The notes under the pieces are model-generated. The model was not told the origin of the DNA. It searched no databases and was given only the letters and a program-made list of their open reading frames with translations. From Candidatus Methylomirabilis oxygeniifera (lineage in GTDB: Bacteria; Methylomirabilota; Methylomirabilia; Methylomirabilales; Methylomirabilaceae), in contig FP565575.1 of the NCBI GenBank assembly GCA_000091165.1, positions 570,001-602,000 on the forward strand: a DNA stretch of 32,000 nt, read 5' to 3'. Shown piece after piece: positions 1,229 through 28,452 of this stretch; the stretch's first letter is position 1; each line of letters opens with the position of its first letter. The translations under genes were made by a program, and so were the position numbers.

Positions 1229-3172
<1,944 letters not shown>

Positions 3173-3183
3173 GGGCTGTCGGC

Positions 3184-3225
3184 GGTCAGCTATGAGCTGA
3201 TAGCTGAAAGCTGATCGCTGCATTC
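3184..3225 (+). repeat. Tandem heptanucleotide array (TGANNGC-type, 6 units)
   Basis: ggtcagc tatgagc tgatagc tgaaagc tgatcgc tgcattc, ending 1 nt before the cdsA ATG. TGA at 3198, 3205 and 3212 falls in all three frames. Confidence 0.85.
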
Positions 3226-3226
3226 T

Positions 3227-4030
3227 ATGCATCTGAAAAGAATCCTCAGCGCTGCTGTCCTCCTTCCAGCCTTCCTCCTGCTGGTTCAGTTCGGAACTGC
3301 CCTTCACTTCTTCCTGCTTGTCGCGCTTGCCATCCTGGTTGGGCTGTACGAATTCTACGGGATGGCAAAGGCCGGCGGTTGGCATCCGTTAACGCCCCTG
3401 GGGATGGGGTGCGGTGTGGCGCTGAGTTGTGTAGAGTTTTTCGAGGCGCCGGCGCCATGGCTGATATCGGCTCTGAGTGGGGTGGTTCTCGTCCTGCTTA
3501 CCAGCCTCATGGTGGGAGGAACAGACCAGAAAGAGGCGGCCTCGCGAGGAGCAGTGACGCTGCTCGGCCTGATCTATGTCGCGGGGTTGATGAGCTTTCC
3601 GGCGCTCCTGCGAGCCATGGAGCCGGGGCGTACCTACATCTTATATCTGGTGTTGGTCACGTGGGCAGGCGACACCGGGGCCTTCTATGTGGGCTCAACG
3701 ATGGGGAAGCGATTGCTCTGCCCCTCGGTGAGTCCGCGCAAAACCGTAGAAGGAAGCGTAGGCGGACTTCTCTGTTCAGTGTTGGCGTCCGGCATAGCCA
3801 AGTTGTGGTTCTGGGAGGGGCTTGGGGCCGTTGAGGTTGTTGCGATGGGATTAGGGCTGGGTGTGATGGGCCAGATCGGGGACCTGTGCGAATCGATGCT
3901 GAAACGAAGTTTCGGGGTCAAGGATACCGGTGCGCTGATCCCCGGCCACGGTGGTCTGCTGGATCGCGTCGATAGTCTCCTGTTCACCGGGCCGGTCCTG
4001 TACGTCGCCGCCCTCGCGGGCTGGGTATGA
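3227..4030 (+). CDS. cdsA: Phosphatidate cytidylyltransferase (CDP-diglyceride synthase)
   Basis: Polytopic membrane ORF with the C-terminal CDS signature SMLKRSFGVKDTGALIPGHGGLLDRVDS. Confidence 0.93.
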   Translation: MHLKRILSAAVLLPAFLLLVQFGTALHFFLLVALAILVGLYEFYGMAKAGGWHPLTPLGMGCGVALSCVEFFEAPAPWLISALSGVVLVLLTSLMVGGTDQKEAASRGAVTLLGLIYVAGLMSFPALLRAMEPGRTYILYLVLVTWAGDTGAFYVGSTMGKRLLCPSVSPRKTVEGSVGGLLCSVLASGIAKLWFWEGLGAVEVVAMGLGLGVMGQIGDLCESMLKRSFGVKDTGALIPGHGGLLDRVDSLLFTGPVLYVAALAGWV

Positions 4031-5607
4031 TGTCGGTCTTTCTGGCTGCGTTGTCGGGAGGACTCCTCATCCTGGCGTTTCCGACGCCCGACCTTGGATG
4101 GCTCGCGTTCGTGGCCCTGGTCCCGTTACTGTTGGCGATCCGTGGCCGGACCCCGGTTCGAGCCTTCTATCTGGGGACGTGTGCAGGACTACTCTTTTAT
4201 CTGGTCAGTGTCTCCTGGGTAACGAATTCGATGACGGCGTACGGCGGCGTACCGTTCGCTCTCAGTGCGCTGGCGCTGCTCGTCCTGGCCGCATACCTCG
4301 CGCTCTACCTTGGTCTGTTCGCCATGGGCGCCGCGTGGATGGCGAGGATGCCGTGGCCCCTTAACCTGCTCGCCCCTTCGGCCTTATGGATCGGCTTGGA
4401 GTACCTGCGGACCTATGCGCTGACCGGATTGCCCTGGATCCTCCTGGGGTATACGCAATATCGGAACAGTGCGCTTCTGCCGATTGCCTCGGTTGCCGGG
4501 GTATACGGCCTGTCGTTTATCGTGGTCCTCATCAATATCGCCCTGGCGCAACTGGCTGGAGGCGCGCCGAACCGTCTTCACACGATCGGCGTGGCCGGCG
4601 CGGTTGCTCTGATCCTGGTCTGGTCGCCCAGACTCCTTTCCCCTGCTTCGACCACGCTCAGTGCAGGGCCTTCTCTGTCTGAGAATTCAGGGCAGAGACT
4701 GAGCGTTGCCGTTGTGCAAGGGAACATCGATCAGGCGGTGAAGTGGGACCAGGCGATGCAGGCCGCTACGATTGAGCAGTATCGCCGCCTCAGTCTGGAG
4801 GCGGCAAAGGAGGCCCCCGCCCTTATCGTATGGCCCGAAACGGCCGTTCCGTTCTTTTTTCGATATGAACCGGCGTTGATGGGCCGCGTCTTGGACATCG
4901 CGGCTGAGACCGGCAGCTATCTCCTGGTAGGCAGTCCGGATGCGGAGCCGCCCGCAGGCGCCGATACCCCGACGCGGTATCGCAATAGCGCGTTTCTGAT
5001 CTCTCCCCGGCGGGAACTCCTCAACAAGTACGACAAGATCCATATGGTGCCTTTTGGGGAGTACGTCCCGCTCAAATCGATCCTGTTCTTTGTCAACAAG
5101 TTGGCGTACGGAATCGGTGATTTCGAAGGGGGCCAAACCTACACCGTGTTTGATACCCCCGGCGGACGTTTTAGTGCCACCATTTGCTACGAGGTAATTT
5201 TTCCGGATCAGGTTCGACGCTACGTGAAAGACGGGGCGGAGTTCCTGGTCAATATGACGAACGATGCCTGGTTCGGTCGGTCGGCTGCCCCGGCGCAGCA
5301 TCTGGCGATGGCCGTCCTTCGGGCGGTCGAGAACCGCCGCTATCTGATCCGAGCGGCCAATACGGGTATTTCCGCTATTGTGGATTCCAGTGGCCGGATC
5401 CTTCGTACCTCGGATATCTTTGTGCCGGCCGTGATTGTAGATCAGATTCACGTCGAGCGAACGCAGACGTTTTATACCCGTTATGGCGATCTCTTTGCAT
5501 GGATCTGTGTCATCTTTATTGCTGCAGTATTCATAGCCACGTGGGCCAGAAGCACGGTAAGAATGGCTTCGGTGCCTGCTGCGACTTCACAAAGGAGGAT
5601 GCGATGA
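4027..5607 (+). CDS. lnt: Apolipoprotein N-acyltransferase
   Basis: 526 aa. N-terminal multi-TM region plus a C-terminal C-N hydrolase domain with a canonical Glu/Lys/Cys triad context (VWPETAVPF, YDKIHMVPFGEYVP, ATICYEVIFPD). ATGA overlap with the cdsA stop. Confidence 0.92.
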   Translation: MMSVFLAALSGGLLILAFPTPDLGWLAFVALVPLLLAIRGRTPVRAFYLGTCAGLLFYLVSVSWVTNSMTAYGGVPFALSALALLVLAAYLALYLGLFAMGAAWMARMPWPLNLLAPSALWIGLEYLRTYALTGLPWILLGYTQYRNSALLPIASVAGVYGLSFIVVLINIALAQLAGGAPNRLHTIGVAGAVALILVWSPRLLSPASTTLSAGPSLSENSGQRLSVAVVQGNIDQAVKWDQAMQAATIEQYRRLSLEAAKEAPALIVWPETAVPFFFRYEPALMGRVLDIAAETGSYLLVGSPDAEPPAGADTPTRYRNSAFLISPRRELLNKYDKIHMVPFGEYVPLKSILFFVNKLAYGIGDFEGGQTYTVFDTPGGRFSATICYEVIFPDQVRRYVKDGAEFLVNMTNDAWFGRSAAPAQHLAMAVLRAVENRRYLIRAANTGISAIVDSSGRILRTSDIFVPAVIVDQIHVERTQTFYTRYGDLFAWICVIFIAAVFIATWARSTVRMASVPAATSQRRMR

Positions 5608-6720
5608 TTGCGGAATGTGCGCGCACACTCGATGGTCTGAAGGACAAGTTGCATATCCTCCGGGACTATCTTTGACGTAGCAGGAAAACAGTCGCGTCTG
5701 GCCGCGATCGAAGAGATGCTCCATTCACAGGAATTCTGGGCCGACACCTCCCGCGCCCGGGAGATCATGAAGGAGCAACGCGCGCTCAAGGATGTGGTCG
5801 ACCAACTGGTAGCCATCGGGGGCGAGCTTGACGATCTGGCGGTCTTGCTCGGACTACTGCGAGAGGAAGAAGACCCGCAGGCTCTGAAAGAGTTGGAAAG
5901 TTCGCTGCGAAGCCTGGAGGGTCAGATTGGCGCGCTCGAGCTGACCACGTTTATGGCGGAAGAATACGACTCGGGCAACGCGATCCTCTCCATCAATCCG
6001 GGCGCCGGCGGCACCGAGTCGCAGGATTGGGCGCAGATGCTGCTGCGAATGTACCTGCGATGGGCGGAGACCGGCAGCTACAAGACCGAAATCATCGACC
6101 TACTTCCTGCGGAGGAGGCCGGGATCAAGAGCGCCACGGTGACGGTATCCGGCAAGTACGCGTATGGTCGCCTGAAGGCTGAGATTGGGGTCCACCGCCT
6201 GGTCCGCATCTCGCCGTTCGATGCCAATCACCGCCGGCACACCTCCTTTGCGTCGGTCTTCGTCTACCCGGAGATCGATGAGACCATCGACGTGGCGATC
6301 GACGACAAGGACCTGCGCATCGACACCTACCGCTCCAGCGGGGCAGGCGGGCAGCATGTCAACGTCACTGACTCAGCAGTTCGGATCACGCACCTGCCGA
6401 CAAACATCGTGGTCTCCTGCCAGAATGAGCGGTCGCAGCACAAGAATAAGGCCATGGCCATGAAGGTCCTGCGCGCCAGGCTGTACGACCACTATCGTCG
6501 GGAGCAGGAGAAGGAAATGGCCAAGCTCGAAGGCGAAAAGAAGGACATTGCGTGGGGCAGCCAAATTCGTTCCTACGTCCTCGCTCCATACCAACTCGTG
6601 AAGGACCATCGGACAGGGCTGGAGACCTCCAATGTCGATAAGGTCCTGGATGGAGAGATCGAGCCGTTCATCGATGCGTTTCTCATGAGAGGCCGAATCT
6701 CGCCCGGCGCTGCGAAGTGA
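5604..6720 (+). CDS. prfB: Peptide chain release factor 2, requiring a programmed +1 frameshift at CTT TGA C (5670-5676)
   Basis: Frame-0 segment ATG 5604 to in-frame TGA 5673-5675 encodes MIAECARTLDGLKDKLHILRDYL. Skipping T5673 joins the frame of ORF 5716-6720 (DVAGKQSRLAAIEEMLHSQEFW...), which carries the RF2-specific SPF and the GGQ (SGAGGQHVN) motifs. The ATG overlaps the lnt stop (ATGA) and has SD AAGGAGGA at 5591-5599. Confidence 0.93.
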
Positions 6721-6741
6721 GCGTTGGTCATGGATTGAGCG

Positions 6742-7089
6742 GTGTACTACCTGACGAAACTGATTGTTACCTGCACACTGATTGTCGCCGTCTCCGAGGT
6801 GGCCAAGCGAAGTTCCCTCGTGGCAGCGGTGTTGGCCTCGCTTCCGATCGTCTCGGTCTTGGCCATCATCTGGCTGTATCTGGACACGCGAGACGTTGAC
6901 AAGGTGGCAGGGCTTGCGCGCAGCATCTTCTGGCTGGTCATTCCCTCGCTGCTGCTGTTTGTCAGTCTGCCGATCCTCCTGCGCAGCGGCGTGAACTTCT
7001 ATGTCGGTCTTTCCGTCTCCATCGGCCTGACCTTGGCCGGCTATTTCCTGATGATGTTGGTCCTACAAAAACTGGGGGTCCAGCTCTAA
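6742..7089 (+). CDS. Small integral membrane protein, DUF3147-like
   Basis: 115-aa ORF with four predicted hydrophobic helices and a GTG start. The family assignment is from memory of DUF3147-type sequences only. Confidence 0.6.
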   Translation: MYYLTKLIVTCTLIVAVSEVAKRSSLVAAVLASLPIVSVLAIIWLYLDTRDVDKVAGLARSIFWLVIPSLLLFVSLPILLRSGVNFYVGLSVSIGLTLAGYFLMMLVLQKLGVQL

Positions 7090-7153
7090 GCCTGCGTATG
7101 AGGGCAGGTGAAAAGTAGCCTGTTTGCTTTTTCTTTGCATGGGAGAACCCTGT

Positions 7154-7495
7154 ATGCCGGTTATTCTTCGTACGGGGCTGTTGCTCGCGCTTTCCAACAT
7201 CTTTATGACATTCGCGTGGTACGGCCACCTGAAAAACCTGAACCATCACAGGTGGTACGTTGCCGCGTTGGCGAGTTGGGGTATCGCGTTATTTGAGTAT
7301 ATGCTCCAGGTGCCCGCGAATCGGATCGGCTATACGCAACTGAGCATCTCGCAGCTCAAGATCATGCAGGAAGTCATTGCGTTGGCTGTATTTGCGCCGT
7401 TCGCCGTTGTCTATATGGACCAGCCGCTCAAGCTTGATTATCTTTGGGCGGCATTGTGTCTGCTCGGCGCGGTCTACTTCATCTTTCGCGCATAA
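7154..7495 (+). CDS. DMT-superfamily small membrane protein (DUF486 family)
   Basis: MPVILRTGLLLALSNIFMTFAWYGHLK... matches the DUF486 N-terminus. ATG 7154 is preferred over the TTG at 7124 used by the ORF track. Confidence 0.75.
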   Translation: MPVILRTGLLLALSNIFMTFAWYGHLKNLNHHRWYVAALASWGIALFEYMLQVPANRIGYTQLSISQLKIMQEVIALAVFAPFAVVYMDQPLKLDYLWAALCLLGAVYFIFRA

Positions 7496-7604
7496 TCCCG
7501 ACGTACCGTTTTTGGGAAACAAGGTAATGTTCTAATGTACTTGTAGTTCTCGTCGAGAGATCGGTCCGGTAACGTTGTCATTGCCCAGAAAGTCCCCCTC
7601 GCAG

Positions 7605-7710
7605 GTCATTGCGAGGGAGCGCAGCGGATCGACGCAATCTCACAGTCGTTGGGGCGCATAGAGTCGCCGGGAAAGACAGTGAGATTGCGTCGCCTTTGGC
7701 TCGCAATGAC
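7605..7710. repeat. Inverted pair of GTCATTGCGAG...CGCAATCTCAC hairpin repeat units
   Basis: Unit gtcattgcgagggagcgcagcggatcgacgcaatctcac (7605-7643) and its reverse-complement relative gtgagattgcgtcgcctttggctcgcaatgac (7679-7710). There is a partial third copy, gtcattgc, at 7577-7584. Same family as 35-77. Confidence 0.8.
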
Positions 7711-7789
7711 GTGTAAAAAGGGATTTGTGAGCCAGTGACACTTCCTCCAGCGGGTGTCAATTAGGACAGTACCGGGGAATGAAAAACGC

Positions 7790-7819
7790 TTGACACCTGC
7801 CCTTCGTTTTTGGTATAAA
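7790..7819 (+). promoter_or_regulatory. Putative sigma70 promoter (consensus -35, extended -10) for the M23 peptidase gene
   Basis: TTGACA (7790-7795), 18-nt spacer, TGg-TATAAA (7811-7819). Confidence 0.55.
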
Positions 7820-7893
7820 AGTTCGATTTCCCCTCCCGGCTCATCGGTTGTTCGTAGTTCGTGGCAGAAACAGACTGGAAAGGATTCGGCTCG

Positions 7894-8859
7894 ATGGCGA
7901 AGAAGTTTTATACCGTCCTTGTCCTTCCCGATGCCGGTTCTCAGATTCGAAAGTTTCACATCGCCAAACCCCTCCTTCGCGCGCTTGCCGTCACCGCGAG
8001 TCTCATTTTCGTCGCCTTTCTGTTTCTCATCTATCAGACGGTCAGCAACACTGGGCACCTACTGGAGCTCCGTCAGCTTCGGACGACAGCAAGCGAGCAG
8101 GGTGACTTGTTGCAGAAGTTTGAACGCCTCGAAGATCAAATGACCCAGCTCCGGGAATTCGACGTCCGTTTGCGTACGGCGGCCGGTCTGGAGGTAAAGA
8201 GTGCGGAGAGTTCGATGGTTGGCGTGGGCGGGGCGGATACCTTGAGTTCGCGCGCGCTGATGGTGGCGGCTCTCGCTCATCAAACCCTACCTGCCGGCTC
8301 TTCAACAAAAATCGGGGTTGACAATCTTGGCGGCGAGCTTGATCGCTTAAGCCGCGAGATGAATGATCGTAATAAGAGCTTTCAGGGTCTGATTGGGGCG
8401 CTCGAGGCAAAGCGGAGCCTCCTGGCCTCTACTCCGACGATCTGGCCGGTTAAAGGGTGGCTTACGGCCGGGTTCGGGCAGCGTCGCTCGCCCTTCACCG
8501 GACAACGGCAGATGCATGAAGGGGTCGATATCTCGAACAGCGTCGGTACGCCGATCATCGCCCCTGCCGATGGGGTCGTGACGTATACGGGTCCGCTTGG
8601 CGGTTTCGGCAATGTGGTCTCGGTCAACCACGGCAACAAGATATCTACCTTCTATGCTCACTTACAGCAGCACAAGGTGTCGCAGGGTCAGCGAGTGAGA
8701 AGAGGAGACGTGATCGGTCTGGTGGGGACAACGGGCCGTGTGACCGGGCCTCACCTTCATTATGAGATTCAGGTAAACGAGGTGCCTGTTGATCCGACCA
8801 AGTATGTCATCGACCCGGAAACGGTGAAATTTCTCGGGAACGGTGAATCGGCCGAGTAG
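7894..8859 (+). CDS. M23/LytM-family metallopeptidase (murein DD-endopeptidase-like) with N-terminal TM anchor and coiled coil
   Basis: C-terminal LytM motifs HEGVDI and GPHLHYEI. The N-terminus MAKKFYTVLVLPD is followed by a hydrophobic helix. ATG 7894 is preferred over the GTG at 7861. Confidence 0.88.
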   Translation: MAKKFYTVLVLPDAGSQIRKFHIAKPLLRALAVTASLIFVAFLFLIYQTVSNTGHLLELRQLRTTASEQGDLLQKFERLEDQMTQLREFDVRLRTAAGLEVKSAESSMVGVGGADTLSSRALMVAALAHQTLPAGSSTKIGVDNLGGELDRLSREMNDRNKSFQGLIGALEAKRSLLASTPTIWPVKGWLTAGFGQRRSPFTGQRQMHEGVDISNSVGTPIIAPADGVVTYTGPLGGFGNVVSVNHGNKISTFYAHLQQHKVSQGQRVRRGDVIGLVGTTGRVTGPHLHYEIQVNEVPVDPTKYVIDPETVKFLGNGESAE

Positions 8860-13555: not shown

Positions 13556-14389
13556 ATGGGAATGGACGACAGCATACTGACAATGGCGGGTATCCAGATG
13601 GGTGGGGGACCTGATCCCGGAGCCAATCTGGAAAGAGCGATAGAGCTGGGAAAGATTGCTGCCCAGCGGGGAGCGAAGATCATCTGTTTGTCGGAGTGCT
13701 TTGCCTGGCCCTGGTTCCCCAGTGAGATCGACCCGGCGCAGTTCGCGACTGCCGAGTCGGTTCCTGGACCACTCAGCGAGACGGTTGCCGCATTTGCGAG
13801 GGATCACCAGGTGGCTGTCGTCGCGCCGATCTTCGAGCGCGGGACCGACGGAGCCTACTATAATACGGCCCTCGTGTTTGACGCCGATGGGACCCTGCTG
13901 GGTCAATACCGAAAAAATCATCTCCCGCAACTCCCAAACTATCAGGAGCGATTCTATTTCCAACCCGGGAACCAGGGATTCCCCGTGTTCCATACCCGAT
14001 ACGCTGTGATCGGCGTCCAGATGTCATGGGATAATTTCTTTCCTGAGGGGTCGCGTCTACTTGCGCTCCAGGGCGCCGAGGTGATCTGCGCGCCAACCTC
14101 CGCCTCGATCGTTGCGTCACACGCTAAATGGGAGCGGGCGCTTGTTGGGAGCGCGGTCTACAACGGCGTATTTGTGTTTCGGGTCAACCGTGTGGCGGGA
14201 GGCGGTGCATTGCCGTTCTATGGGAAGAGCTTTTGCGTCGATCCCAACGGCGACTTTGTGGCGGATCCGAGTGGCGCCGACGAGGGGGTCGTTCTGGCGG
14301 AGATCGACCTGAGGTGGGTCAAGACCGTCAGGGGGATCTGGCCGTTCCTCCAGGAGCGTCGGCCCGAGATCTACACCGGACTGACCTAG
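13556..14389 (+). CDS. Carbon-nitrogen hydrolase (nitrilase superfamily) homolog with Ser in place of the nucleophile Cys
   Basis: 277 aa. Glu context ICLSECF (E47) and Lys context YRKNHLP (K120). The position normally reading C[WY]D..[FY]PE reads QMSWDNFFPE, with the Ser157 codon TCA at 14024-14026. The start lies 2 nt after the DUF35 stop. Confidence 0.8.
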   Translation: MGMDDSILTMAGIQMGGGPDPGANLERAIELGKIAAQRGAKIICLSECFAWPWFPSEIDPAQFATAESVPGPLSETVAAFARDHQVAVVAPIFERGTDGAYYNTALVFDADGTLLGQYRKNHLPQLPNYQERFYFQPGNQGFPVFHTRYAVIGVQMSWDNFFPEGSRLLALQGAEVICAPTSASIVASHAKWERALVGSAVYNGVFVFRVNRVAGGGALPFYGKSFCVDPNGDFVADPSGADEGVVLAEIDLRWVKTVRGIWPFLQERRPEIYTGLT

Positions 14390-14505
14390 GGGAAGTTGTG
14401 AGTTGTGGGTTTTCCATTTCGAGGTGGGAAGCTCTTCCGCAAATGTCACACTCCAAACTCGAAACCTGATCATCTTCATCTCGATAGATAACGTCAGGAG
14501 GAACA

Positions 14506-15858
14506 ATGGCCTTAATCGCGCCCTTCAGAGGATTACGATACAATCCTGAGTTGATAAGTGACCTGAGCCTGGTGATGGCGCCGCCCTACGATGTGATTTC
14601 ACCGGAAGGGCAGCAAACCTTTCATGCCCGCCATACCCACAACGTGATCCGCCTGATTCTTGGTGAGACACTGGCGGAAGACGACGCGGTACGAAACCAA
14701 TATAGTCGTGCCGGCGACTATTTCCGCCGATGGCAGGCCGAGCAGGTACTGGTTCGTGATGCTGCGCCCACCTTATACCTCTACCAGCAGACGTTTCGTC
14801 TCCCTGGTGTCGGGGAACTCGCACGATCCGGTCTGATCGGACTGGTTCGTCTGGAAGAGTTCGGCAGTCGTACGGTCTTCCCTCATGAACGAACAATGGG
14901 AGCCGCCAAGGCGGACCGACTTCGCCTGATGCAGGCCTGTCACGCGAATTTAAGTTCAGTCTTTGGTATCTACCCCGGTCGCTTTCTCGAACTGGATCGA
15001 CTGGCGGCTGCCGCCATGGGGTCCACGCCGATTATTGATCTCCGCGATTGGGATGGCATTCATCATCGAATCTGGATGTGTCAGGATCATGCGGCGATCG
15101 GAAGACTTCAGGCGGAGTGCGCATCGACGCCGCTCTTTATCGCAGACGGTCATCATCGGTATGAGACGGCGCTGGCGTTTCGCGATCTCATGCGGGCGAA
15201 GGAGGCTGGTGATCCCGCCCACACGCAGAGACGGCCTTATAACTACGTCATGATGACGCTCGTCAGCGCCGAAGACCACGGCCTGGTCATTCTTCCGATC
15301 CATCGGGTCATGAGACACCTCCCGGGTGGCAGTCTGGATGGATATCTGGCCCAGCTCGGTCGACAATTCGCCGTGGAGAGCCTCACTGTTTCCCGTGACC
15401 CTCAGGCTACGGCGTCGGTTCTGCTGGACCGTCTCCGACAGACTACGGAGGGGATGCACTGTTTTGGTCTCTACGGTGGAGAGGATCGCGCCTATCTTCT
15501 GACGCTCACCGATGAACGGGTCCTGGAGGCGGGGGATGACAAGCCGCCAGTGTACAGACGGCTGGATGTCACCATCGCGCACACGTGTCTCATTGAGGGG
15601 CCGTGGTCACGGCATGGGTTGGGTGATCTTTCAGATGACGGGCTCAGTTACCATCATGATGCCGCGGAGGCGGTCCGGATGGTCCAGAAAGATGGGTGGG
15701 CAGCGGCTATTTTGCTTAATCCAACGAAAATTACTCAGGTTCAGGCGGTGGCCGAGGCCGGTCTGCGGATGCCGCCTAAGTCAACCTTTTTCTACCCCAA
15801 ACTCCTTACCGGCCTGGTCATTCATCCCATCGTAACCGATGAGGTGATCGAGGCGTAG
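14506..15858 (+). CDS. DUF1015 family protein (function unknown)
   Basis: 450 aa. The N-terminus MALIAPFRGLRYNPE...MAPPYDVISPE and the later FIADGHHRYETA are characteristic of DUF1015. AGGAGG SD 5 nt upstream. Confidence 0.85.
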   Translation: MALIAPFRGLRYNPELISDLSLVMAPPYDVISPEGQQTFHARHTHNVIRLILGETLAEDDAVRNQYSRAGDYFRRWQAEQVLVRDAAPTLYLYQQTFRLPGVGELARSGLIGLVRLEEFGSRTVFPHERTMGAAKADRLRLMQACHANLSSVFGIYPGRFLELDRLAAAAMGSTPIIDLRDWDGIHHRIWMCQDHAAIGRLQAECASTPLFIADGHHRYETALAFRDLMRAKEAGDPAHTQRRPYNYVMMTLVSAEDHGLVILPIHRVMRHLPGGSLDGYLAQLGRQFAVESLTVSRDPQATASVLLDRLRQTTEGMHCFGLYGGEDRAYLLTLTDERVLEAGDDKPPVYRRLDVTIAHTCLIEGPWSRHGLGDLSDDGLSYHHDAAEAVRMVQKDGWAAAILLNPTKITQVQAVAEAGLRMPPKSTFFYPKLLTGLVIHPIVTDEVIEA

Positions 15859-15943: not shown

Positions 15944-16150
15944 TCACCCGCCTGGCGCACAACCCCCGCCTCCGCCGCCTGTCGTGCCGGAGACGACAGA
16001 TCCCTGCTCCCCTTTAAAGCTGAAGGCGGAAAACTGTTTTTCCACAGCCGCCCCAGGGCAGTGCGGGCATTCTACGACGGCATCGCGGCTTAGGACGAGC
16101 TTTTCAAACACCTGGCCGCAGTGTGAACACAGATACTCATAGATAGGCAT
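15944..16150 (-). CDS. FmdB-family zinc-ribbon protein (CxxC...CxxC)
   Basis: MPIYEYLCSHCGQVFE...VECPHCPG with a Gly-rich C-terminal tail. GGAGGG SD upstream. Confidence 0.85.
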   Translation of the reverse strand: MPIYEYLCSHCGQVFEKLVLSRDAVVECPHCPGAAVEKQFSAFSFKGEQGSVVSGTTGGGGGGCAPGG

Positions 16151-16170
16151 ACCGACACTACCCTCCGGGT

Positions 16171-16368
16171 TTATTCTCCGCCGCGCTGGACGTAGCTCTT
16201 GACAAACTCCTCGGCGTTTTCCTCGAGGACCTCATCGATCTCATCCATAAGTTTGTCAAGGTCCTCCTTGAGCTTCTTCCCCTTCTTTACGGTTTCGGGA
16301 TTCGGCTCAGCCGCCTCAGGTGGGCCGGCGCCGGCCTCGCGCTTTTGCTTGCGTTCCTGCTCTGCCAT
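16171..16368 (-). CDS. pup: Prokaryotic ubiquitin-like protein (Pup/UBact family), C-terminal GGE
   Basis: 65 aa. Disordered charged N-terminal half. The C-terminal half KLKEDLDKLMDEIDEVLEENAEEFVKSYVQRGGE closely parallels the mycobacterial Pup C-terminus as I recall it (LLDEIDDVLEENAEDFVRAYVQKGGQ). AAGGAG SD 5 nt upstream of the ATG. Confidence 0.85.
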   Translation of the reverse strand: MAEQERKQKREAGAGPPEAAEPNPETVKKGKKLKEDLDKLMDEIDEVLEENAEEFVKSYVQRGGE

Positions 16369-16388
16369 GTCTCACTCCTTCATCCGTC

Positions 16389-16901
16389 TCACCGAGCCGC
16401 CTGCCAGACGAGGTGTTGTACCTCCGGTACCAGGAGTTTCGTCAGGGCGAGACGGACGGCGTGCTCTGAACCCGGCAGACACACGATCACCTTTCCTTTT
16501 GCCGTCCCGCATAGCGCGCGACTCATCAGCGCAGCGCTCCCAACCTCCTGGAAGCTGAGACTTCGGAACAGCTCGCCAAAGCCCGGCAACATCTTATCCA
16601 AAATAGGGCTGATCGCTTCAATCGTCTGATCTCTCTTGGTGAGCCCGGTCCCTCCTGTGATGACGATCAGATCAACCTCATCTTCACACAGCTTCTTGAC
16701 GACCTCTCTCAGGCCTTTTGGATCGTTCTTCAGGATCATTGCGGCCACCTGGCTATGACCGGCTTCATTGAGCAGCGATTCAATAAGTCGGCCTGAGTGG
16801 TCGTCTTCCGACTTACGACTATCGGTGATGCTGAGCCTTACGTATCGGACCGGTCCGACCTTCTTGGACTCTGCGTGATGATCGTGAACACCCATGGGCA
16901 C
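16389..16901 (-). CDS. moaB: Molybdenum cofactor biosynthesis protein B (MoaB/MogA family)
   Basis: VITGGTGLTKRDQTIEA, GFGELFRSLSFQEVGSAALMSRA and CLPGS motifs. The start is either GTG 16901 or ATG 16895. Confidence 0.9.
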   Translation of the reverse strand: MPMGVHDHHAESKKVGPVRYVRLSITDSRKSEDDHSGRLIESLLNEAGHSQVAAMILKNDPKGLREVVKKLCEDEVDLIVITGGTGLTKRDQTIEAISPILDKMLPGFGELFRSLSFQEVGSAALMSRALCGTAKGKVIVCLPGSEHAVRLALTKLLVPEVQHLVWQAAR

Positions 16902-17002: not shown

Positions 17003-17557
17003 TTATGTTGCGTGCGACCGGATCAACTGCATGAACTCGTTTCGGCTCTCGATCCGCTCGCGGAAGACCCCGTGCATCGATGAGGTCACAGCCTTACTAT
17101 TCTGTTTTTCTACGCCGCGCATCATCATGCAGAGGTGTTGGGCTTCCATGACGACGGCCACTCCCTTTGGTCGCAGGGCCTCCAGAAGCGCATTGGCGAT
17201 CTGTGAGGTCAGACGCTCCTGCACCTGGAGTCGGCGACTATACATCTCAACCAGCCGAACCAGCTTGCTCAAACCGACGATCCTGCCGTCCGGCAGATAG
17301 CCGACGTGGCACTTGCCAAAAAAGGGCAGGAGATGATGTTCGCACAACGAGAAGAAATCGATGTCCTTGACCAGGACGATCTCGTCATAGTTGTCCTGGA
17401 AGACCGCCTCGTTCAGAACATTATTGACCTGTTTATCGTATCCGGACGTGAGGAAGGCGAACATCCGCTCTACCCGCTCCGGGGTCTTGACCAATCCTTC
17501 CCGATCGGGATCCTCGCCGATCTCCTTCAGCAGATCCCTAACCAACCGCTCGATCAT
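17003..17557 (-). CDS. folE: GTP cyclohydrolase I
   Basis: 184 aa from ATG 17557. [31 protein letters not shown] and HLCMMMRGV motifs. The 69-codon upstream extension in the ORF track has no FolE similarity. Confidence 0.93.
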
Positions 17558-17624
17558 GCGTATATTCCTTATCGCGACAACATGAGTGACGCCGAATCGT
17601 AAACGCGTTGAGGCTCTTGGTAAA

Positions 17625-17653
17625 AGTGTAAATGAGCAGACCGGGATGTGCAA
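17625..17653 (-). promoter_or_regulatory. Putative sigma70 promoter for folE
   Basis: On the minus strand: TTGCAC (17653-17648), 17-nt spacer, TACACT (17630-17625). About 65 nt upstream of the folE ATG. Confidence 0.35.
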
Positions 17654-17974
17654 GGAAAACCTCTGTTGCGCAAACGAGCAGGGCGCGGCCCACTGGAATC
17701 GCCATCGAAGAAAGGGCAGGGAAAATGGTTTTGGACGCTTTTTCCCATACCCTATATCCTCCACCCTACACTCCGGATCACGGAGGTGCCGGTGAGTCGT
17801 GTGGTTGCTGACGGGCCTTGCATGCGCAGTGAGAGGCTTGACCGGTTACTTGGTCGGATCGGGCCGGGTAGCATGCCTGCTGGCCGGAGTACTTGAGGGA
17901 TGAGAGGGGCGGGTCTCGATGTTGCTTCGCTCGCCAGAGCGAGATCTGTGCAGATAATGTATCTGCTGTTCCTG

Positions 17975-18577
17975 TTACGGCGCAGGAGCGGTCTGTCCTT
18001 CCAACGTGAGCCTCCGCAATGCGGATTCGGCCTGCGCCCGTGCCTTACGGGCCTCGCTCCTGACGGCTTCCTTGGCGCCGAGTTCGCCAAACAGGTGCTC
18101 TCGCGTCGAGGTAAAGCTTCGATCGACATTGGTGTTGAAGGTATCGACGATCTGCGCTTTGATCGTGGTGATCTCACGATCGGATTTCACTTCTATCGCC
18201 TTGGTTCCCGCCACCTTCGCCTGATACTGCGCTTTCTCTGCGAGCAAGCTGACCGCTTCCCCTGAGGTCCTGGCGCTGAACAGATGAGCGCCCTTCTCCT
18301 GTGTCGCAGACCTGAAGAGTTTCGCCTCATCCTTGGCCTGCGCCAAATATTCCAGGGCCAATGAGAACTCCTCCGGCGCATAGATCTCCGCCTCGAAGTC
18401 TCTCGCCTCCAGAATGGCTTTGTCCGCCTCCTCCAGCGCCTTCATGAAGACGATCTCTTGCGCATCGGCCAAGTCTGTTCTGAGCAGAACCGAAGGGCCC
18501 GCCCAAAGCGTAAACGACACCAGCGCGATCATGATAGCTACAATCAGGCCCGGAACAGTTCGCCTGTGCTCTCTCAT
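17975..18577 (-). CDS. Hypothetical membrane-anchored or exported alpha-helical protein
   Basis: 200 aa. The N-terminal basic stretch plus hydrophobic helix (GLIVAIMIALVSFTLWA) is followed by an Ala/Glu/Lys-rich helical region. The ATG overlaps the pfp stop (ATGA). No family is recognised with confidence. Confidence 0.6.
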   Translation of the reverse strand: MREHRRTVPGLIVAIMIALVSFTLWAGPSVLLRTDLADAQEIVFMKALEEADKAILEARDFEAEIYAPEEFSLALEYLAQAKDEAKLFRSATQEKGAHLFSARTSGEAVSLLAEKAQYQAKVAGTKAIEVKSDREITTIKAQIVDTFNTNVDRSFTSTREHLFGELGAKEAVRSEARKARAQAESALRRLTLEGQTAPAP

Positions 18578-24156: not shown

Positions 24157-25380
24157 TCATGTCCGGTGGAGGACGTTGAACAGGGCGGGTGGCGATAAGA
24201 GGGCGTGTGGCGGGAGTAGATCCCCGATGATACCAAGCAGCAGATTCGCAAGCGATTGACGTCGACAGAGAAGCCGCGCGACCGCGTTCGCAACGCGTGG
24301 TCGACGGATGATGGCCTGTAACGCAATACCAAGCCGCCGCCTGCCTCTCACAGCATTGCGCTGATGGTGATCAAACCGCGCAAGGTGAGCCTCGGTCAGA
24401 CCCCCGTCGCCTTCGGCACAGGCGGAGACGATCTCGCTGGCCGCGAGTTGCGCGCCGCAAAGGGCGTGACCTACCCCTTCGCCGGTAAAAGGATCGTAAA
24501 AGCCTGCCGCATCTCCAATTAGCAGCGCGCCGGCCATGGCGCTACGACTCGCTCGAAACGCCAGAGGGCCGAGGCATCGGACCGACCCGCGTCGCACCGT
24601 GTCACGAAGGGCGCTCAGTGCGAGGGGAAACGCCTGCAGCGTGCCGTCGAACAGCTCGTCAAGTTGCCCTTTCCAGCCTTGCACGATCCCCTGATCCACC
24701 ACAATGGCGGCGTTGGTCAGCCATTCACCGATTGAATTCAGGATGCAATACGACCGATCGCCGATCGAGATCAGCCCGTGATCCTGAAGTGTACTGACCC
24801 CCTCATAGTAGGCGACCAGCGCCATCCGATGTAGCGTAGGATGCGGCTGATACAGGCCGAGCCGCCTGGCGACCACTGAGTCTCGTCCGTCCGCTCCCAC
24901 GACGATCCGCCCTCGATACGTCTCCGGGCCCGTCGGCCCGATCCCTGTGACACCGCACACTTGCCCGTTCTCCAAAATCAGATCGGTCACGCGCAACCCT
25001 TCGACGCATCTCGCCCCGAAACCGCGAGCCCATTTCAGCAAGAGGCTGTCAAGGATAGCCCTTGGAATGGAAAGCGCGAACGGGGGCCCCGCGTTGATTC
25101 TGCTGATGGCGGGAAATTCGGCCGTGAAGGTCGTACCATCCGGGGAGATAATCGTCATGCCCAGCAGGCGCCGCGCCCCGGCCGAGCGTACGAGGTCAAG
25201 CAGATTAAGCTGATCGAGAAGTCCGACGGTCCCCGGGCTGAGATAGTCGCCGCAGATCTTCTCGCGAGGGAAGGTCGCCTTGTCGAGCAGCAGCGCGTCA
25301 ATCCCGCGCCGGGCTAAAAGACCGGCTAGGACCGAGCCGGCCGGACCGGCGCCCACAATGATGACCGTGGTCTGTGGCAT
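24157..25380 (-). CDS. FAD-dependent oxidoreductase (geranylgeranyl-reductase / aromatic-ring hydroxylase fold)
   Basis: 407 aa. N-terminal dinucleotide fold VIIVGAGPAGSVLAGLLARRGIDALLLDK, then GADGRDSVVAR and the GDAAGFYDPFTGEG motif. Confidence 0.85.
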   Translation of the reverse strand: MPQTTVIIVGAGPAGSVLAGLLARRGIDALLLDKATFPREKICGDYLSPGTVGLLDQLNLLDLVRSAGARRLLGMTIISPDGTTFTAEFPAISRINAGPPFALSIPRAILDSLLLKWARGFGARCVEGLRVTDLILENGQVCGVTGIGPTGPETYRGRIVVGADGRDSVVARRLGLYQPHPTLHRMALVAYYEGVSTLQDHGLISIGDRSYCILNSIGEWLTNAAIVVDQGIVQGWKGQLDELFDGTLQAFPLALSALRDTVRRGSVRCLGPLAFRASRSAMAGALLIGDAAGFYDPFTGEGVGHALCGAQLAASEIVSACAEGDGGLTEAHLARFDHHQRNAVRGRRRLGIALQAIIRRPRVANAVARLLCRRQSLANLLLGIIGDLLPPHALLSPPALFNVLHRT

Positions 25381-25386
25381 GATGTA

Positions 25387-25559
25387 GCGAATAGCCTTCA
25401 GCGATCAGCCCTCAGCCGTCAGCTTCAAACAAACCCCCCTGACCCCCCTTTCAAAAAAAGGGGGGGATATTACTGAGACGCTTCCTTCCCTCCCCCTTTC
25501 GTAAAGGGGGATTGAGGAGGTTTTCATGCGTTGATCGCTGAAAGCTGATAGCTGTCTTC
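25387..25559. repeat. Composite repeat block: heptad array, two C/G hairpin units and an inverted heptad array
   Basis: [GCNNTCA]x6 at 25387-25428. Hairpin B1 cccccctttcaaaaaaaggggggg lies within 25431-25469. Hairpin B2 ccccctttcgtaaaggggg...ggttttcatgcg lies within 25484-25530. [TGANNGC]x4 at 25532-25559. Together they fill the whole 179-bp spacer between the methyltransferase and FAD genes. Confidence 0.85.
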
Positions 25560-26282
25560 TCAAGTTGCAATCTCTTTGGTGAGGGCGATGCGGAACCAGA
25601 GATGACGGCTCAGTCGCACATCGGTAAGACCGGCTTCGGTCGCCATGCGACGCAACTCCTCTGGTCTGAAACCGCGAAGGACCGACATCGGACCGTCGTG
25701 GCGCGTCAGCCGATTGCCGGATAGCAGCCGTGTAGTTATCGCGGTCAGCAGACAGGCGAGTCGGCTGCGCAGCAGGTCATTGACCAGCAGCCCGCGTCGG
25801 GTTACCCGCGCCATCTCCCGCAGCAGGAGGATTCCTTCCGCCTCCGTCAGGTGGTGAAAGAAGAGAGAGGCGATGACGTAGTCGAAGCTGCGGTCCGGGT
25901 AGGGCAAGGGGGGCACTTGCGCCTGTCGCAGTCGGATCTCCGGGAAGTCGATCGACCATTCGGTTGCAGCCGCCAGAACATGGTCGTTCTGATCCACGGC
26001 TTCAATAGCGACAGGAAATTTGCGCTTCCTGGCCCAACGGCAGATGGCCCTGGGAATATCGGCGCCGCCGGTTGCCATATCCAGAATCGTGAAGGACCTC
26101 GGCGAATGCTGTTCTACCATTCGACCGAGGCATAAGAGTACCGTACGCACACCGCCGAAATATCGGTTCAGTCGCTCCAGGTCGCGCAGATTCTCACGGA
26201 TCTCCTCAGCGGAGTTATCCGAGCGGTCCAGTAGTTCCGCCGCCCCTTGGAGACGAGGGAGGGACAGTCGGGTCGTCACCAT
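25560..26282 (-). CDS. Class I SAM-dependent methyltransferase
   Basis: 240 aa. Motif I context FTILDMATGGADIPRAI and the later FDYVIASLFFHHL. The start overlaps the PKS stop by 7 nt. Confidence 0.8.
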   Translation of the reverse strand: MVTTRLSLPRLQGAAELLDRSDNSAEEIRENLRDLERLNRYFGGVRTVLLCLGRMVEQHSPRSFTILDMATGGADIPRAICRWARKRKFPVAIEAVDQNDHVLAAATEWSIDFPEIRLRQAQVPPLPYPDRSFDYVIASLFFHHLTEAEGILLLREMARVTRRGLLVNDLLRSRLACLLTAITTRLLSGNRLTRHDGPMSVLRGFRPEELRRMATEAGLTDVRLSRHLWFRIALTKEIAT

Positions 26283-27301
26283 CGCAGTAGCGCACCCTCC
26301 GCGCAGAAGCCCGGCCCGAGCGCAATCATCACGCCCAGGTCGCCGGGAAATGCCTGCCCGGATCTGATCACTTCATTGAGAACGAAGAGAACCGTGGCCG
26401 ACGACATATTCCCGAATTGGCGAAGCACCTGCCGGGAGAATTGGAGGTCAGCGTCACCGAGCCCGATCTCGCGTTGCGCCCGTTCGAGGACCCCTCGGCC
26501 GGCGGAGTGCAGGACCCAGAATCGGATATCCTCCTGCTTAAGATGATAGCGATCGAGTATTGCCGCCGCCAGCTCCTTCATCATGGCGCTGCCGATTCCC
26601 CTGATCTCCTTGGACAGCAGGATGCGGGGTCGTCCGCTCGGATAGGTAAACCCCATCAGGTCAAGGTACTCGGAACGAACCAGACTCATGTGGCCCATGA
26701 CCTCAACCCCGGCGCCATCGGATGCCAGGATGGCCGCCGCGGCCCCGTCGGCAAAGATCGCGTTGGCCACGGCGGTTTCGAGGGAATCATCGAGGTAGTA
26801 GGTTGAGGAACAGATCTCCACGGAGACGATCAGCGCCCGATGATCAGGAAAGGCCAGCAGGTGGTTATAGGCCTGCTGCAGCGCAATCATCCCGCTGGCG
26901 CAGCCCATATCTCCCACATGTACCCGTTGAACCCGTTCCTTCATCCTGAATTCCCGGACGAAATAGGCGTCGAGGTTGGGACACAGCCGGCCGGTGCAGG
27001 TGGTGGTCACTACAAAGTCGATCTCCTGAGCGGAGCAGCCGGCCTTGTCCAGGGCGCGCTGGATCGCCTGGCGGCCGATCTCGATGCCTCCTTTGCGGAA
27101 TCTGGCGTTGAGTTCGTCCGTGGTCTCAGTGGGGCGAAAGGTAGGCTTATCCACATACATATGCCGCTGCTCAATGCCGCTGTGGAGGAAAAAGCCCCGC
27201 CGTCGCTCATCGGTATACGATGCGATGGCCAGCAGCTCTTCTTGGGTGAAAGACGTTGTGGGGTTAGCGGTGTCGAGCGCGATAATCCTGGGGTTGGGCA
27301 T
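26276..27301 (-). CDS. Type III polyketide synthase (chalcone/stilbene synthase family)
   Basis: 341 aa. Catalytic triad contexts DMGCASG (Cys), WVLHSAGRG (His) and FGNMSSATV (Asn), with C-terminal ALGPGF. GGAGG SD upstream of the ATG at 27301. Confidence 0.88.
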   Translation of the reverse strand: MPNPRIIALDTANPTTSFTQEELLAIASYTDERRRGFFLHSGIEQRHMYVDKPTFRPTETTDELNARFRKGGIEIGRQAIQRALDKAGCSAQEIDFVVTTTCTGRLCPNLDAYFVREFRMKERVQRVHVGDMGCASGMIALQQAYNHLLAFPDHRALIVSVEICSSTYYLDDSLETAVANAIFADGAAAAILASDGAGVEVMGHMSLVRSEYLDLMGFTYPSGRPRILLSKEIRGIGSAMMKELAAAILDRYHLKQEDIRFWVLHSAGRGVLERAQREIGLGDADLQFSRQVLRQFGNMSSATVLFVLNEVIRSGQAFPGDLGVMIALGPGFCAEGALLRW

Positions 27302-27558
27302 GTGTACGCCTCCTAATGGTTCATTGGTGCCTCATCGTGGAGAGCAGCCAATCAATTCTACTGAGCGTTCGGCTTCGACGTTCCGGTTGGGTTGTGAGAT
27401 CAAGTTGATCCTACAGCGAAGGTGTGCCATAGTTAGTTGAGTAGGCGAAATGACTCTACCGGGTACCATAGACATCACTATATAACTGAGAGCGTGGTTC
27501 GCAACCTATCATTAAACTATGGGATTGACTCCTCAAGCACAAGAAATTTCTTTAACCT

Positions 27559-28452
27559 ATGTTTACCACAAAAACGTATACAAAAGATTTTAAGTATTTT
27601 AAGGAGCAATACGACGAAAGCATGGAGCGCATGTTTGCGGCGGTCAGCGATCTCTACGCCGAATACTGGAACGATTTTTTTCATTTTGCGCTGTTCAAGG
27701 ATGAAGATGAGAGTCGGGAGTCGGCTTTCCACAATACTCACAAGAAATATCTGGAAGCTCTGCGGATAGGCGACGCGCGTCATGTGCTCGAACTGGCTTG
27801 CGGGAGAGGCGGCTTTACGAATGTTCTGGCCGAACATACGTCCGGTGACGTGTTGGGGATCGATATTTCTCGTTCACAACTTTCACATGCCAGGAGATTC
27901 AAGCGGCCGAACTTACGTTTCAGGCACCACGACATCATGAAAGTTGATGAACTCGGAGAAATGTTTGACGCAGTCGTGCTCATGGACGCGGAGTGCTACT
28001 TACCGGATAAACAATTGGCTGTAGAGAAAATCTCGAACGTGATGAACCCAGGAGCTCGCCTTCTTCTCCTCGGATGGTGCAAGCAGGATGGGTTGAACTC
28101 AATTCAGGAAGAACTTGTCTTGCATCCATTTATGAAATACTGGGCCATCCCAAGTCTTGAAACGCCGGACAATTACAGAAAATATTTTGAGCACAACGAT
28201 TTCAACATCATTGAGATGACTGATCTAAATCATCAAGTCAAGAGAAACTGGGAGTTTGGCTATGCGTCAGCGTTGAAGGCCATTAAGACGCTTTCAATCA
28301 AAGACGTTCCGCGCCTCGTCTGGAAAGATATGAGATTGGGGAGCGAGGGGGTCAGACTCATGAAAGAGCAATTTCCGGCCGCTATCTACATCAAGGTCGG
28401 CTACGACGTGGGGTTCCTTCGCTATGTCTACTTCCTGGTCGAGAAGAAATAA
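27559..28452 (+). CDS. Class I SAM-dependent small-molecule methyltransferase, compositionally atypical (low G+C)
   Basis: 297 aa. The N-terminal LYAEYWNDFFHFALF segment resembles the W..N.HFG.W box of RebM/gamma-tocopherol-MT-like enzymes. Motif I is VLELACGRGG. A hand count gives ~48% G+C against >60% in the neighbours. Confidence 0.75.
   Translation: MFTTKTYTKDFKYFKEQYDESMERMFAAVSDLYAEYWNDFFHFALFKDEDESRESAFHNTHKKYLEALRIGDARHVLELACGRGGFTNVLAEHTSGDVLGIDISRSQLSHARRFKRPNLRFRHHDIMKVDELGEMFDAVVLMDAECYLPDKQLAVEKISNVMNPGARLLLLGWCKQDGLNSIQEELVLHPFMKYWAIPSLETPDNYRKYFEHNDFNIIEMTDLNHQVKRNWEFGYASALKAIKTLSIKDVPRLVWKDMRLGSEGVRLMKEQFPAAIYIKVGYDVGFLRYVYFLVEKK

Follow-up and report, generated by a model that had tools for sequence, protein, structure and literature searches.

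How does a gene for the prokaryotic ubiquitin-like protein Pup come to lie between a molybdenum-cofactor gene and a small zinc-ribbon gene, with no gene of the pupylation pathway in sight? The question is raised by a stretch of 32,000 nucleotides of the Candidatus Methylomirabilis oxyfera genome (contig FP565575.1), the whole of which we refer to as the 32-kb window. The gene concerned is a short open reading frame (ORF) on the minus strand at 16171–16368, which the first-pass annotation had described as a stand-alone pup with a ligation-ready Gly-Gly-Glu (GGE) end, forming part of a moaB-pup-fmdB transcription unit and linked to genes of pterin-cofactor metabolism. Judged from sequence comparison, this ORF is very probably the functional pup gene of M. 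oxyfera, a reading to which we assign a probability of roughly 0.85. The two features that set it apart, a Pup without its machinery and a new pterin link, have ordinary explanations; the Pup itself is ordinary and its gene order is unusual.

The ORF runs from an ATG start to a TAA stop and its product is a 65-residue protein (MAEQERKQKREAGAGPPEAAEPNPETVKKGKKLKEDLDKLMDEIDEVLEENAEEFVKSYVQRGGE). An AAGGAG Shine-Dalgarno sequence (16375–16380, minus strand) lies 6 nt 5′ of the ATG, and 20-nt gaps separate pup from the moaB stop codon (16391–16389) on one side and, counted from its own stop, from the ATG of the zinc-ribbon gene (16150) on the other, all of which can be read directly in the sequence as originally claimed. 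In profile hidden Markov model (HMM) searches, the protein matched the Pfam Pup family PF05639 over residues 4–65 (E=8.8e-21, 75 bits, cutoff 27) and NCBIfam TIGR03687 (62.4 bits, cutoff 41.45), so that the possibility, allowed for at the outset, of there being no significant profile hit is refuted by matches above both curated cutoffs. Lehmann and colleagues reportedly gave, in 2017, the name 'UBact' to non-actinobacterial Pup homologues of Gram-negative phyla; no UBact-named model was found among the NCBIfam and Pfam matches to the window Pup at E up to 1, and the NCBIfam name for both this protein and its Nitrospirota homologues is Pup. Pup is a disordered protein, and its chains in PDB entries 3m9d, 7px9 and 4bjr (a PafA fusion) aligned in sequence to ours with E from 4.3e-12 to 5.2e-6, the former value being that of Mycobacterium tuberculosis Pup in its Mpa complex (3m9d_G), aligned over residues 4–65. 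The window Pup and the M. tuberculosis chains are nearly identical in the stretch LDEIDxVLEENAExFVxxYVQxGG and, by this alignment, the C-terminal half of the window Pup is homologous to the segment with which Pups studied by experiment bind Mpa and PafA.

The length and terminus of the protein (65 residues, with VQRGGE followed directly by the stop) lie within what is expected of a Pup, namely some 50–90 residues with a GGQ or GGE end, and a small protein with a G[EQ] end is the published signature of the family (Iyer et al., 2008; PMC2588565). Together, family models and terminus bear out the earlier claim of a real Pup with an end predicted to be ready for ligation. Among 119 related loci, 90 encode a GGE and 28 a GGQ terminus. 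The exact window Pup, for which an exact-sequence cluster look-up gave no entry in the protein collection, is encoded on 24 contigs in an encoding-contig index, among them one longer than 1 Mb. A large protein collection holds 1668 homologues, the majority of them Methylomirabilota (NC10) proteins, and the label "ubiquitin-like protein Pup" is already given to its close homologues by public pipelines.

Being apart from all pupylation genes within the window, the ORF might be taken for a chance ORF, or for a decaying or redundant paralogue left behind by a rearrangement. We see next to no chance of this, and rejected both. Between the window pup and its orthologue in GCA_003104975.1 there are 17 synonymous and only 6 non-synonymous differences, giving a ratio of non-synonymous to synonymous substitution rates (dN/dS) of 0.063; the same comparison gave 0.065 for moaB, 0.075 for folE and 0.038 for the zinc-ribbon gene. 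By this measure pup is under strong purifying selection and, with a dN/dS of ~0.06, is therefore not a decaying copy. Moreover, its start, Shine-Dalgarno sequence and GGE terminus are all intact, and the C-terminal half of Pup is nearly invariant from Methylomirabilota to Nitrospirota, where Pups encoded at the canonical position are nearly identical to it. The first-pass annotation had also allowed for decay of a paralogue beside a canonical dop-pup-prcBA locus. This too is refuted, both by the dN/dS and by the M. oxyfera mpa-dop-prcB-prcA-pafA cluster described below, which holds no other pup.

Where, then, is the machinery? Pfam scans of the large ORFs revealed no PafA/Dop, Mpa or proteasome gene in the window, and six-frame phmmer searches of all window ORFs of at least 35 residues, with M. 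oxyfera Mpa, Dop, PrcB, PrcA and PafA as probes, gave no match. It is thus correct that the ~15 kb flanking pup on each side contain no partner gene; the description of pup as stand-alone is wrong. The exact window Pup is encoded in assembly GCA_009026205.1 (contig WBTX01000004.1) and in the ENA sequence 'Methylomirabilis_oxyfera_contig_196', and the same two assemblies carry mpa-dop-prcB-prcA-pafA on other contigs (WBTX01000003.1 and contig_159; loci L107 and L108 of the survey presented below), with a leucyl aminopeptidase gene next after pafA. All five products exceed the cutoffs of the respective NCBIfam equivalog models: Mpa, 726.8 bits (TIGR03689, cutoff 504.75); Dop, 576.5 bits (TIGR03688, 492.3); PrcB, 303 bits (TIGR03690, 191.9); PrcA, 322.3 bits (TIGR03691, 139.05); and PafA, 575.9 bits (TIGR03686, 551.3). 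The proteasomal ATPase and 20S subunits among them are not universal in bacteria that have Pup. All the genes that were to be looked for across the genome are present, refuting the idea that M. oxyfera might have no PafA/Dop homologue anywhere. The cluster itself is without pup: no Pup-like ORF was found within 10 kb on either side of pafA, and the gap between dop and prcB is 30 nt.

The M. oxyfera PafA appears as CBE67820.1, KAB2960717.1 and UniRef D5MLF4, "Pup--protein ligase", in the PafA search and its listing of cluster members. In the 2,752,854-bp M. oxyfera record, which contains PafA as CBE67820.1, the zinc-ribbon protein is CBE67759.1 and MoaB is CBE67761.1, so Pup is presumably CBE67760. 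From these numbers, and from contigs on which pup lies 22.9 kb from one contig end and mpa 21.8 kb from the end of the other, mpa would lie ~55 genes, or roughly 45–60 kb, from the pup unit, just beyond the 32-kb window. Thus, pup looks orphaned because the ligase, depupylase, ATPase and proteasome genes sit ~55 genes away. Loss of the machinery in Methylomirabilis had been hinted at by a scan with the PafA of a relative, in which no M. oxyfera was among the matches listed (at least 80 loci), and is ruled out by CBE67820.1 and by loci L107 and L189. Likewise, a protein search with the Dop of a relative returned no match named M. oxyfera, this Dop being presumably inside a 90% cluster; negatives from a pattern-based genome scan or an exact-sequence cluster look-up are not to be taken as absence.

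The origin of the odd neighbours emerged from a survey of 189 fetched loci (L numbers) analysed with our own ORF and HMM pipeline. In L017 (ENA ERZ25039477 contig_17544; Pup 72% identical to the window's), folE, a parA-like gene, moaB, pup, the zinc-ribbon gene (ZnR), mpa, dop, prcB, prcA and pafA are contiguous, and the same contiguous order occurs in L020 (metagenome-assembled genome SBS.BIN.71; 46/65 Pup residues identical, 71%), L102, L127 and L186. In L100 (Pup 85%), four opposite-strand genes intervene between moaB-pup-ZnR and mpa-dop-prcB-prcA. Thus, in relatives moaB-pup-ZnR abuts mpa-dop-prcB-prcA-pafA either directly or across a 5-kb insertion, whereas M. oxyfera (Pup 100%) and GCA_003104975.1 (Pup 91%) show no linkage of the two halves, and in the latter an 8-kb insertion also parts prcA from pafA. 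The window block is orthologous to those of L017 and L020, with the same order and spacing; theirs run straight into mpa-dop-prcB-prcA-pafA, and that of L100 continues into the cluster past its insertion, whereas that of the window meets a convergent DUF1015 gene (14506–15858, plus strand; PF06245, 303 bits) and has the cluster elsewhere.

Across the survey, pup occupies two mutually exclusive positions, either the canonical one between dop and prcB or one directly 5′ of the FmdB-type zinc-ribbon gene. The canonical position was observed in the Nitrospirota loci carrying pup (mainly Manganitrophaceae and Troglogloeales types) and in the Methylomirabilota-like loci L025, L027 and L028. In L025 pup is canonical, yet moaB and the zinc-ribbon gene are still directly upstream of mpa. 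Because moaB-pup-ZnR adjoins the cluster in relatives, we infer by comparison that it represents the original left flank of the pupylation cluster of Methylomirabilota, and that rearrangements in the Methylomirabilis lineage probably parted this left edge from the rest.

Within the window, the gene upstream of pup (16389–16895, minus strand; 168 residues, called with an ATG start in L001) is annotated MoaB (CBE67761.1) and is better described as moaB-like, since it fails the MoaB equivalog TIGR02667 (155.2 bits, cutoff 222.4), with only the domain models of molybdenum-cofactor biosynthesis passing (PF00994, 99.4 bits; TIGR00177, 113 bits against 85.35). Further upstream is folE, encoding GTP cyclohydrolase I (17003–17557, minus strand; 184 residues, the same call being made in L001; PF01227, 258 bits). 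Downstream of pup, the zinc-ribbon gene (15944–16150, minus strand; CBE67759.1) encodes 68 residues with a CxxC...CxxC ribbon and a Gly/Cys-rich tail ending in GG. Pfam and NCBIfam scores agree with the neighbours as first named, an FmdB zinc ribbon, folE and, at the domain level, moaB. In the folE–moaB interval, the sequence TTGACC-17-TATCAT (16978–16950, minus strand) matches a sigma-70-like promoter at 10 of 12 positions and is a candidate promoter of moaB-pup-ZnR, and the minus strand from moaB to the zinc-ribbon gene showed no terminator-like site. The earlier proposal of a moaB-pup-fmdB transcription unit is supported as probable by the spacing and this promoter-like match: the three genes most likely form one transcript starting just upstream of moaB, and such a transcript would therefore uncouple pup expression from that of the enzyme cluster.

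A 20-nt gap to moaB, together with a folE...moaB-pup arrangement kept across Methylomirabilis-like lineages whose Pups are 72–100% identical to the window's, could suggest that Pup is functionally coupled to pterin or molybdenum-cofactor metabolism, regulating those enzymes for example. We consider this highly improbable. The gene 5′ of pup varies: Methylomirabilis-like genomes have moaB there, many soil sister lineages a dCTP deaminase gene (dcd) with pup-ZnR unchanged, and this replacement of moaB by dcd while pup-ZnR stays is evidence against a pterin or molybdenum-cofactor tie. Moreover, a parA-like gene and a small ORF lie between folE and moaB in relatives, and in L025 moaB borders the cluster with pup not next to it, a pattern that matches an inherited neighbourhood rather than a functional tie. 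The dcd-pup-ZnR lineages thus led us to reject a functional folE/moaB link, and the association of pup with pterin-cofactor genes seen in the first-pass annotation is not conserved, moaB-pup-ZnR being the 5′ flank of the cluster, with dcd in sister lineages. Accordingly, the arrangement moaB-pup-fmdB does recur in related genomes as far as the Methylomirabilis-like group is concerned, and in the sister lineages it does not, dcd being there instead of moaB.

The other neighbour proved far more constant, and the suggested link between pup and the zinc-ribbon gene holds up more strongly than it first appeared. Of the 111 loci whose sequence extends 250 nt or more beyond pup, 94 have ZnR directly 3′ of it. 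In 16 of the remaining 17 pup is canonical, between dop and prcB, and the last is a frame artefact, so that in 94 of 95 loci with pup outside the dop-pup-prcB position the next gene is ZnR. The gap between the two is short (median 6.5 nt, mode 3 nt), and the pairs span 51 distinct Pup C-terminal (45-residue) sequences, 63–100% identical to that of the window. With the upstream gene variable and ZnR constant, it is therefore pup-ZnR that stands out as the conserved unit. The window ZnR protein belongs to the FmdB family by its scores (PF09723, 53.2 bits against 34.4; TIGR02605, CxxC_CxxC_SSSS, 59 against 31.3) and by its N-terminal ribbon of ~41 residues with two CxxC pairs (C8–C11 and C28–C31), sharing with that family the MPxYEY-CxxC...CxxC ribbon and a degenerate Gly/Cys/Ser tail.

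These observations raise a tentative possibility, which would add to the explanation given above and not replace it: that in Methylomirabilota the FmdB-type protein serves the Pup pathway as a dedicated accessory not described so far, acting on Pup itself or on one of PafA, Dop and Mpa. A chaperone or buffer that binds Pup is conceivable, as is an adaptor for, or a regulator of, one of these three partners; in either case its synthesis would be translationally coupled to that of Pup. Besides the adjacency, with its lone frame artefact outside the canonical loci, and the typical 3-nt gap kept across so many distinct Pups, the persistence of the pair both when moaB gives way to dcd upstream and when it lies far from mpa, the position of ZnR directly upstream of mpa in L025 despite a canonical pup, and its dN/dS of 0.038 argue for such a role. 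On the other hand, gene order inherited within one phylum may keep two genes adjacent that have no function in common. The gene was absent from 69 Nitrospirota pupylation loci and we found none described for Actinobacteria in the literature searched; the pathway therefore works without it. Finally, we know of no established function for the FmdB family, which also offers no solved structure (a search for PDB relatives of the zinc-ribbon protein returned nothing meaningful) and no invariant lysine. As to its C-terminus, the ZnR protein ends in Gly-Gly in moaB-type lineages (CAPGG, CTSGG, CSSSGG, CSSGG, CQGG, AGGG) and in GCGCH in dcd-type ones; the di-glycine end (15944–15952 in the window; also in L007, L017, L020, L022, L100 and L102) may merely reflect a Gly/Cys-rich tail.

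With pup and a complete set of partner genes in the same genome, the pathway can be sketched using actinobacterial pupylation as template (PMC7947786; PMC3511204; and general knowledge). Since Pup is made already with a Gly-Gly-Glu end, PafA would be able to use it without deamidation by Dop. As family membership suggests, PafA with ATP would phosphorylate the side chain of the terminal glutamate and join Pup-GGE to lysines of substrate proteins. The conserved C-terminal helix region (LDKLMDEIDEVLEENAEEFVKSYVQRGGE) would be bound, as in actinobacteria, by the Mpa coiled coils and by PafA/Dop; Mpa would unfold the tagged proteins and feed them to the PrcAB 20S core for degradation; and Dop, its deamidation activity being superfluous for a GGE Pup, would act as the depupylase that removes the tag. 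For M. oxyfera itself, the shared transcript, the conjugation of Pup to substrates and a part for the ZnR protein are predictions from sequence.

A variant of this scheme, which we regard as rather unlikely, is that Pup-GGE serves mainly as a reversible regulatory tag outside proteasomal degradation, its expression being set by its own operon. The predicted transcriptional uncoupling of pup from mpa and prcBA in M. oxyfera and GCA_003104975.1 is consistent with it, as is the retention of dop, which a GGE Pup does not need for deamidation and which fits a depupylase role, and proteasome-independent pupylation is established in Corynebacterium. Nonetheless, mpa, prcB and prcA are intact and above their equivalog cutoffs in the same genome, and degradation is therefore the simplest expectation.

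Compared with the actinobacterial Pup-proteasome system (M. tuberculosis Pup Rv2111c, Dop, PafA, Mpa and PrcBA), that of M. oxyfera has a Pup of the same family by PF05639 and TIGR03687, with the common C-terminal motif LDEIDxVLEENAExFVxxYVQxGG[EQ], and the same five partner families at equivalog level. It differs in that pup lies outside the dop–prcB interval, with no adjoining PafA/Dop paralogue, in a GGE instead of the GGQ end of M. tuberculosis Pup, and in its host, a Gram-negative NC10 (Methylomirabilota) bacterium unlike those of the actinobacterial system. Further counterparts are found in Nitrospirota, where in mpa-dop-pup-prcB-prcA-pafA loci the C-terminal half of Pup is nearly identical to that of the window (KGKKIKEDLDKLMDEIDDVLEENAEEFVKNYVQKGGE), most Pups likewise end in GGE, and PafA is ~60% identical to Methylomirabilota PafA among the matches listed; the Manganitrophaceae/Troglogloeales-type loci differ from the window in having a canonical pup and no zinc-ribbon gene. 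For NC10, a 2020 study reported Dop/PafA homologues "very sporadically" in draft genomes (PMC7947786); the literature searched gave nothing else of direct relevance on UBact, on pupylation in Methylomirabilis or on proteasomes of Rokubacteria. Adjacency to a PafA/Dop paralogue, a typical and not strictly defining property of pup genes, is lacking at the window locus, and it is in this typical neighbourhood alone that the locus departs: in all else it encodes a member of the Pup family within a complete Pup-proteasome system.

Against our assignment and its genomic setting it must be said that Iyer et al. (2008; PMC2588565) reported a PafA paralogue "invariably" next to pup, and the window pup departs from the very adjacency from which the functional link was originally deduced. 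Moreover, although no other pup was detected in the M. oxyfera sequence read, this covered ~20 kb around each gene, and a second pup may exist elsewhere in the genome. The distance of ~55 genes was estimated from the serial numbering of protein accessions and from contig geometry rather than read from coordinates, and the promoter is a consensus match only, of a kind found twice in the region against 0.9 expected.

Two aspects are of modest interest: the phylum-wide relocation of pup away from the ligase gene, and the pup-ZnR pair, which we did not find described, no paper in the literature searched dealing with both pupylation and FmdB. Throughout Methylomirabilota/NC10, widespread soil lineages included, pup has left the dop-pup-prcB position and is often far from the ligase gene. 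With pup away from PafA, the early adjacency rule fails, and neighbourhood-based screens will mis-call an "orphan Pup" or "no Pup". The tiny FmdB zinc-ribbon gene, an almost invariant and tightly spaced partner of pup, is a lead to a possible accessory factor; if true, this would be the first role for the FmdB family and the sixth player in a pathway thought fully catalogued.

The survey also yielded observations on other loci and on the regions around these genes. In Nitrospiraceae/Nitrospira loci examined around pafA (L041–L099), mpa-dop-prcB-prcA-pafA is present with dop and prcB abutting or overlapping, and neither a Pup-like ORF nor a conserved small ORF ending in G[EQ] was found within 10 kb on either side of pafA, so that there too pup must be elsewhere. 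The ~8 kb between prcA and pafA in GCA_003104975.1 (contig PQAM01000010.1; L189, 2192–9843) looks like a defence or mobile island, with a sigma-70/anti-sigma (zf-HC2) pair, an HMA protein, a 1002-residue MmeI-like restriction-modification enzyme, and HEPN and nucleotidyltransferase genes. Downstream of pafA and of M17 peptidase, AsnC and MFS genes, both Methylomirabilis-like genomes have five or six tandem paralogous ORFs of ~303 residues with no Pfam match on record (L107, 14817–20715; L189, 14825–19554). In the species with the 91% identical Pup (L007), an F420 biosynthesis block (cofC, cofD, cofE and cofG/H-like genes) is, relative to the window, inserted between a DUF4398 gene and folE, and an aldehyde:ferredoxin oxidoreductase gene and a small Ub-Mut7C beta-grasp gene are inserted after DUF1015; the insertions (2686–8364 and 11952–14100 in L007; window counterparts 14389–14506 and 17557–17975) mark the region as a rearrangement hot spot. 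Elsewhere in the window, a type III polyketide synthase gene (26276–27301, minus strand) is part of a small biosynthetic-looking group (24157–28452) that includes an FAD-dependent monooxygenase (24157–25380, minus strand) and two methyltransferases (25560–26282, minus strand; 27559–28452, plus strand).

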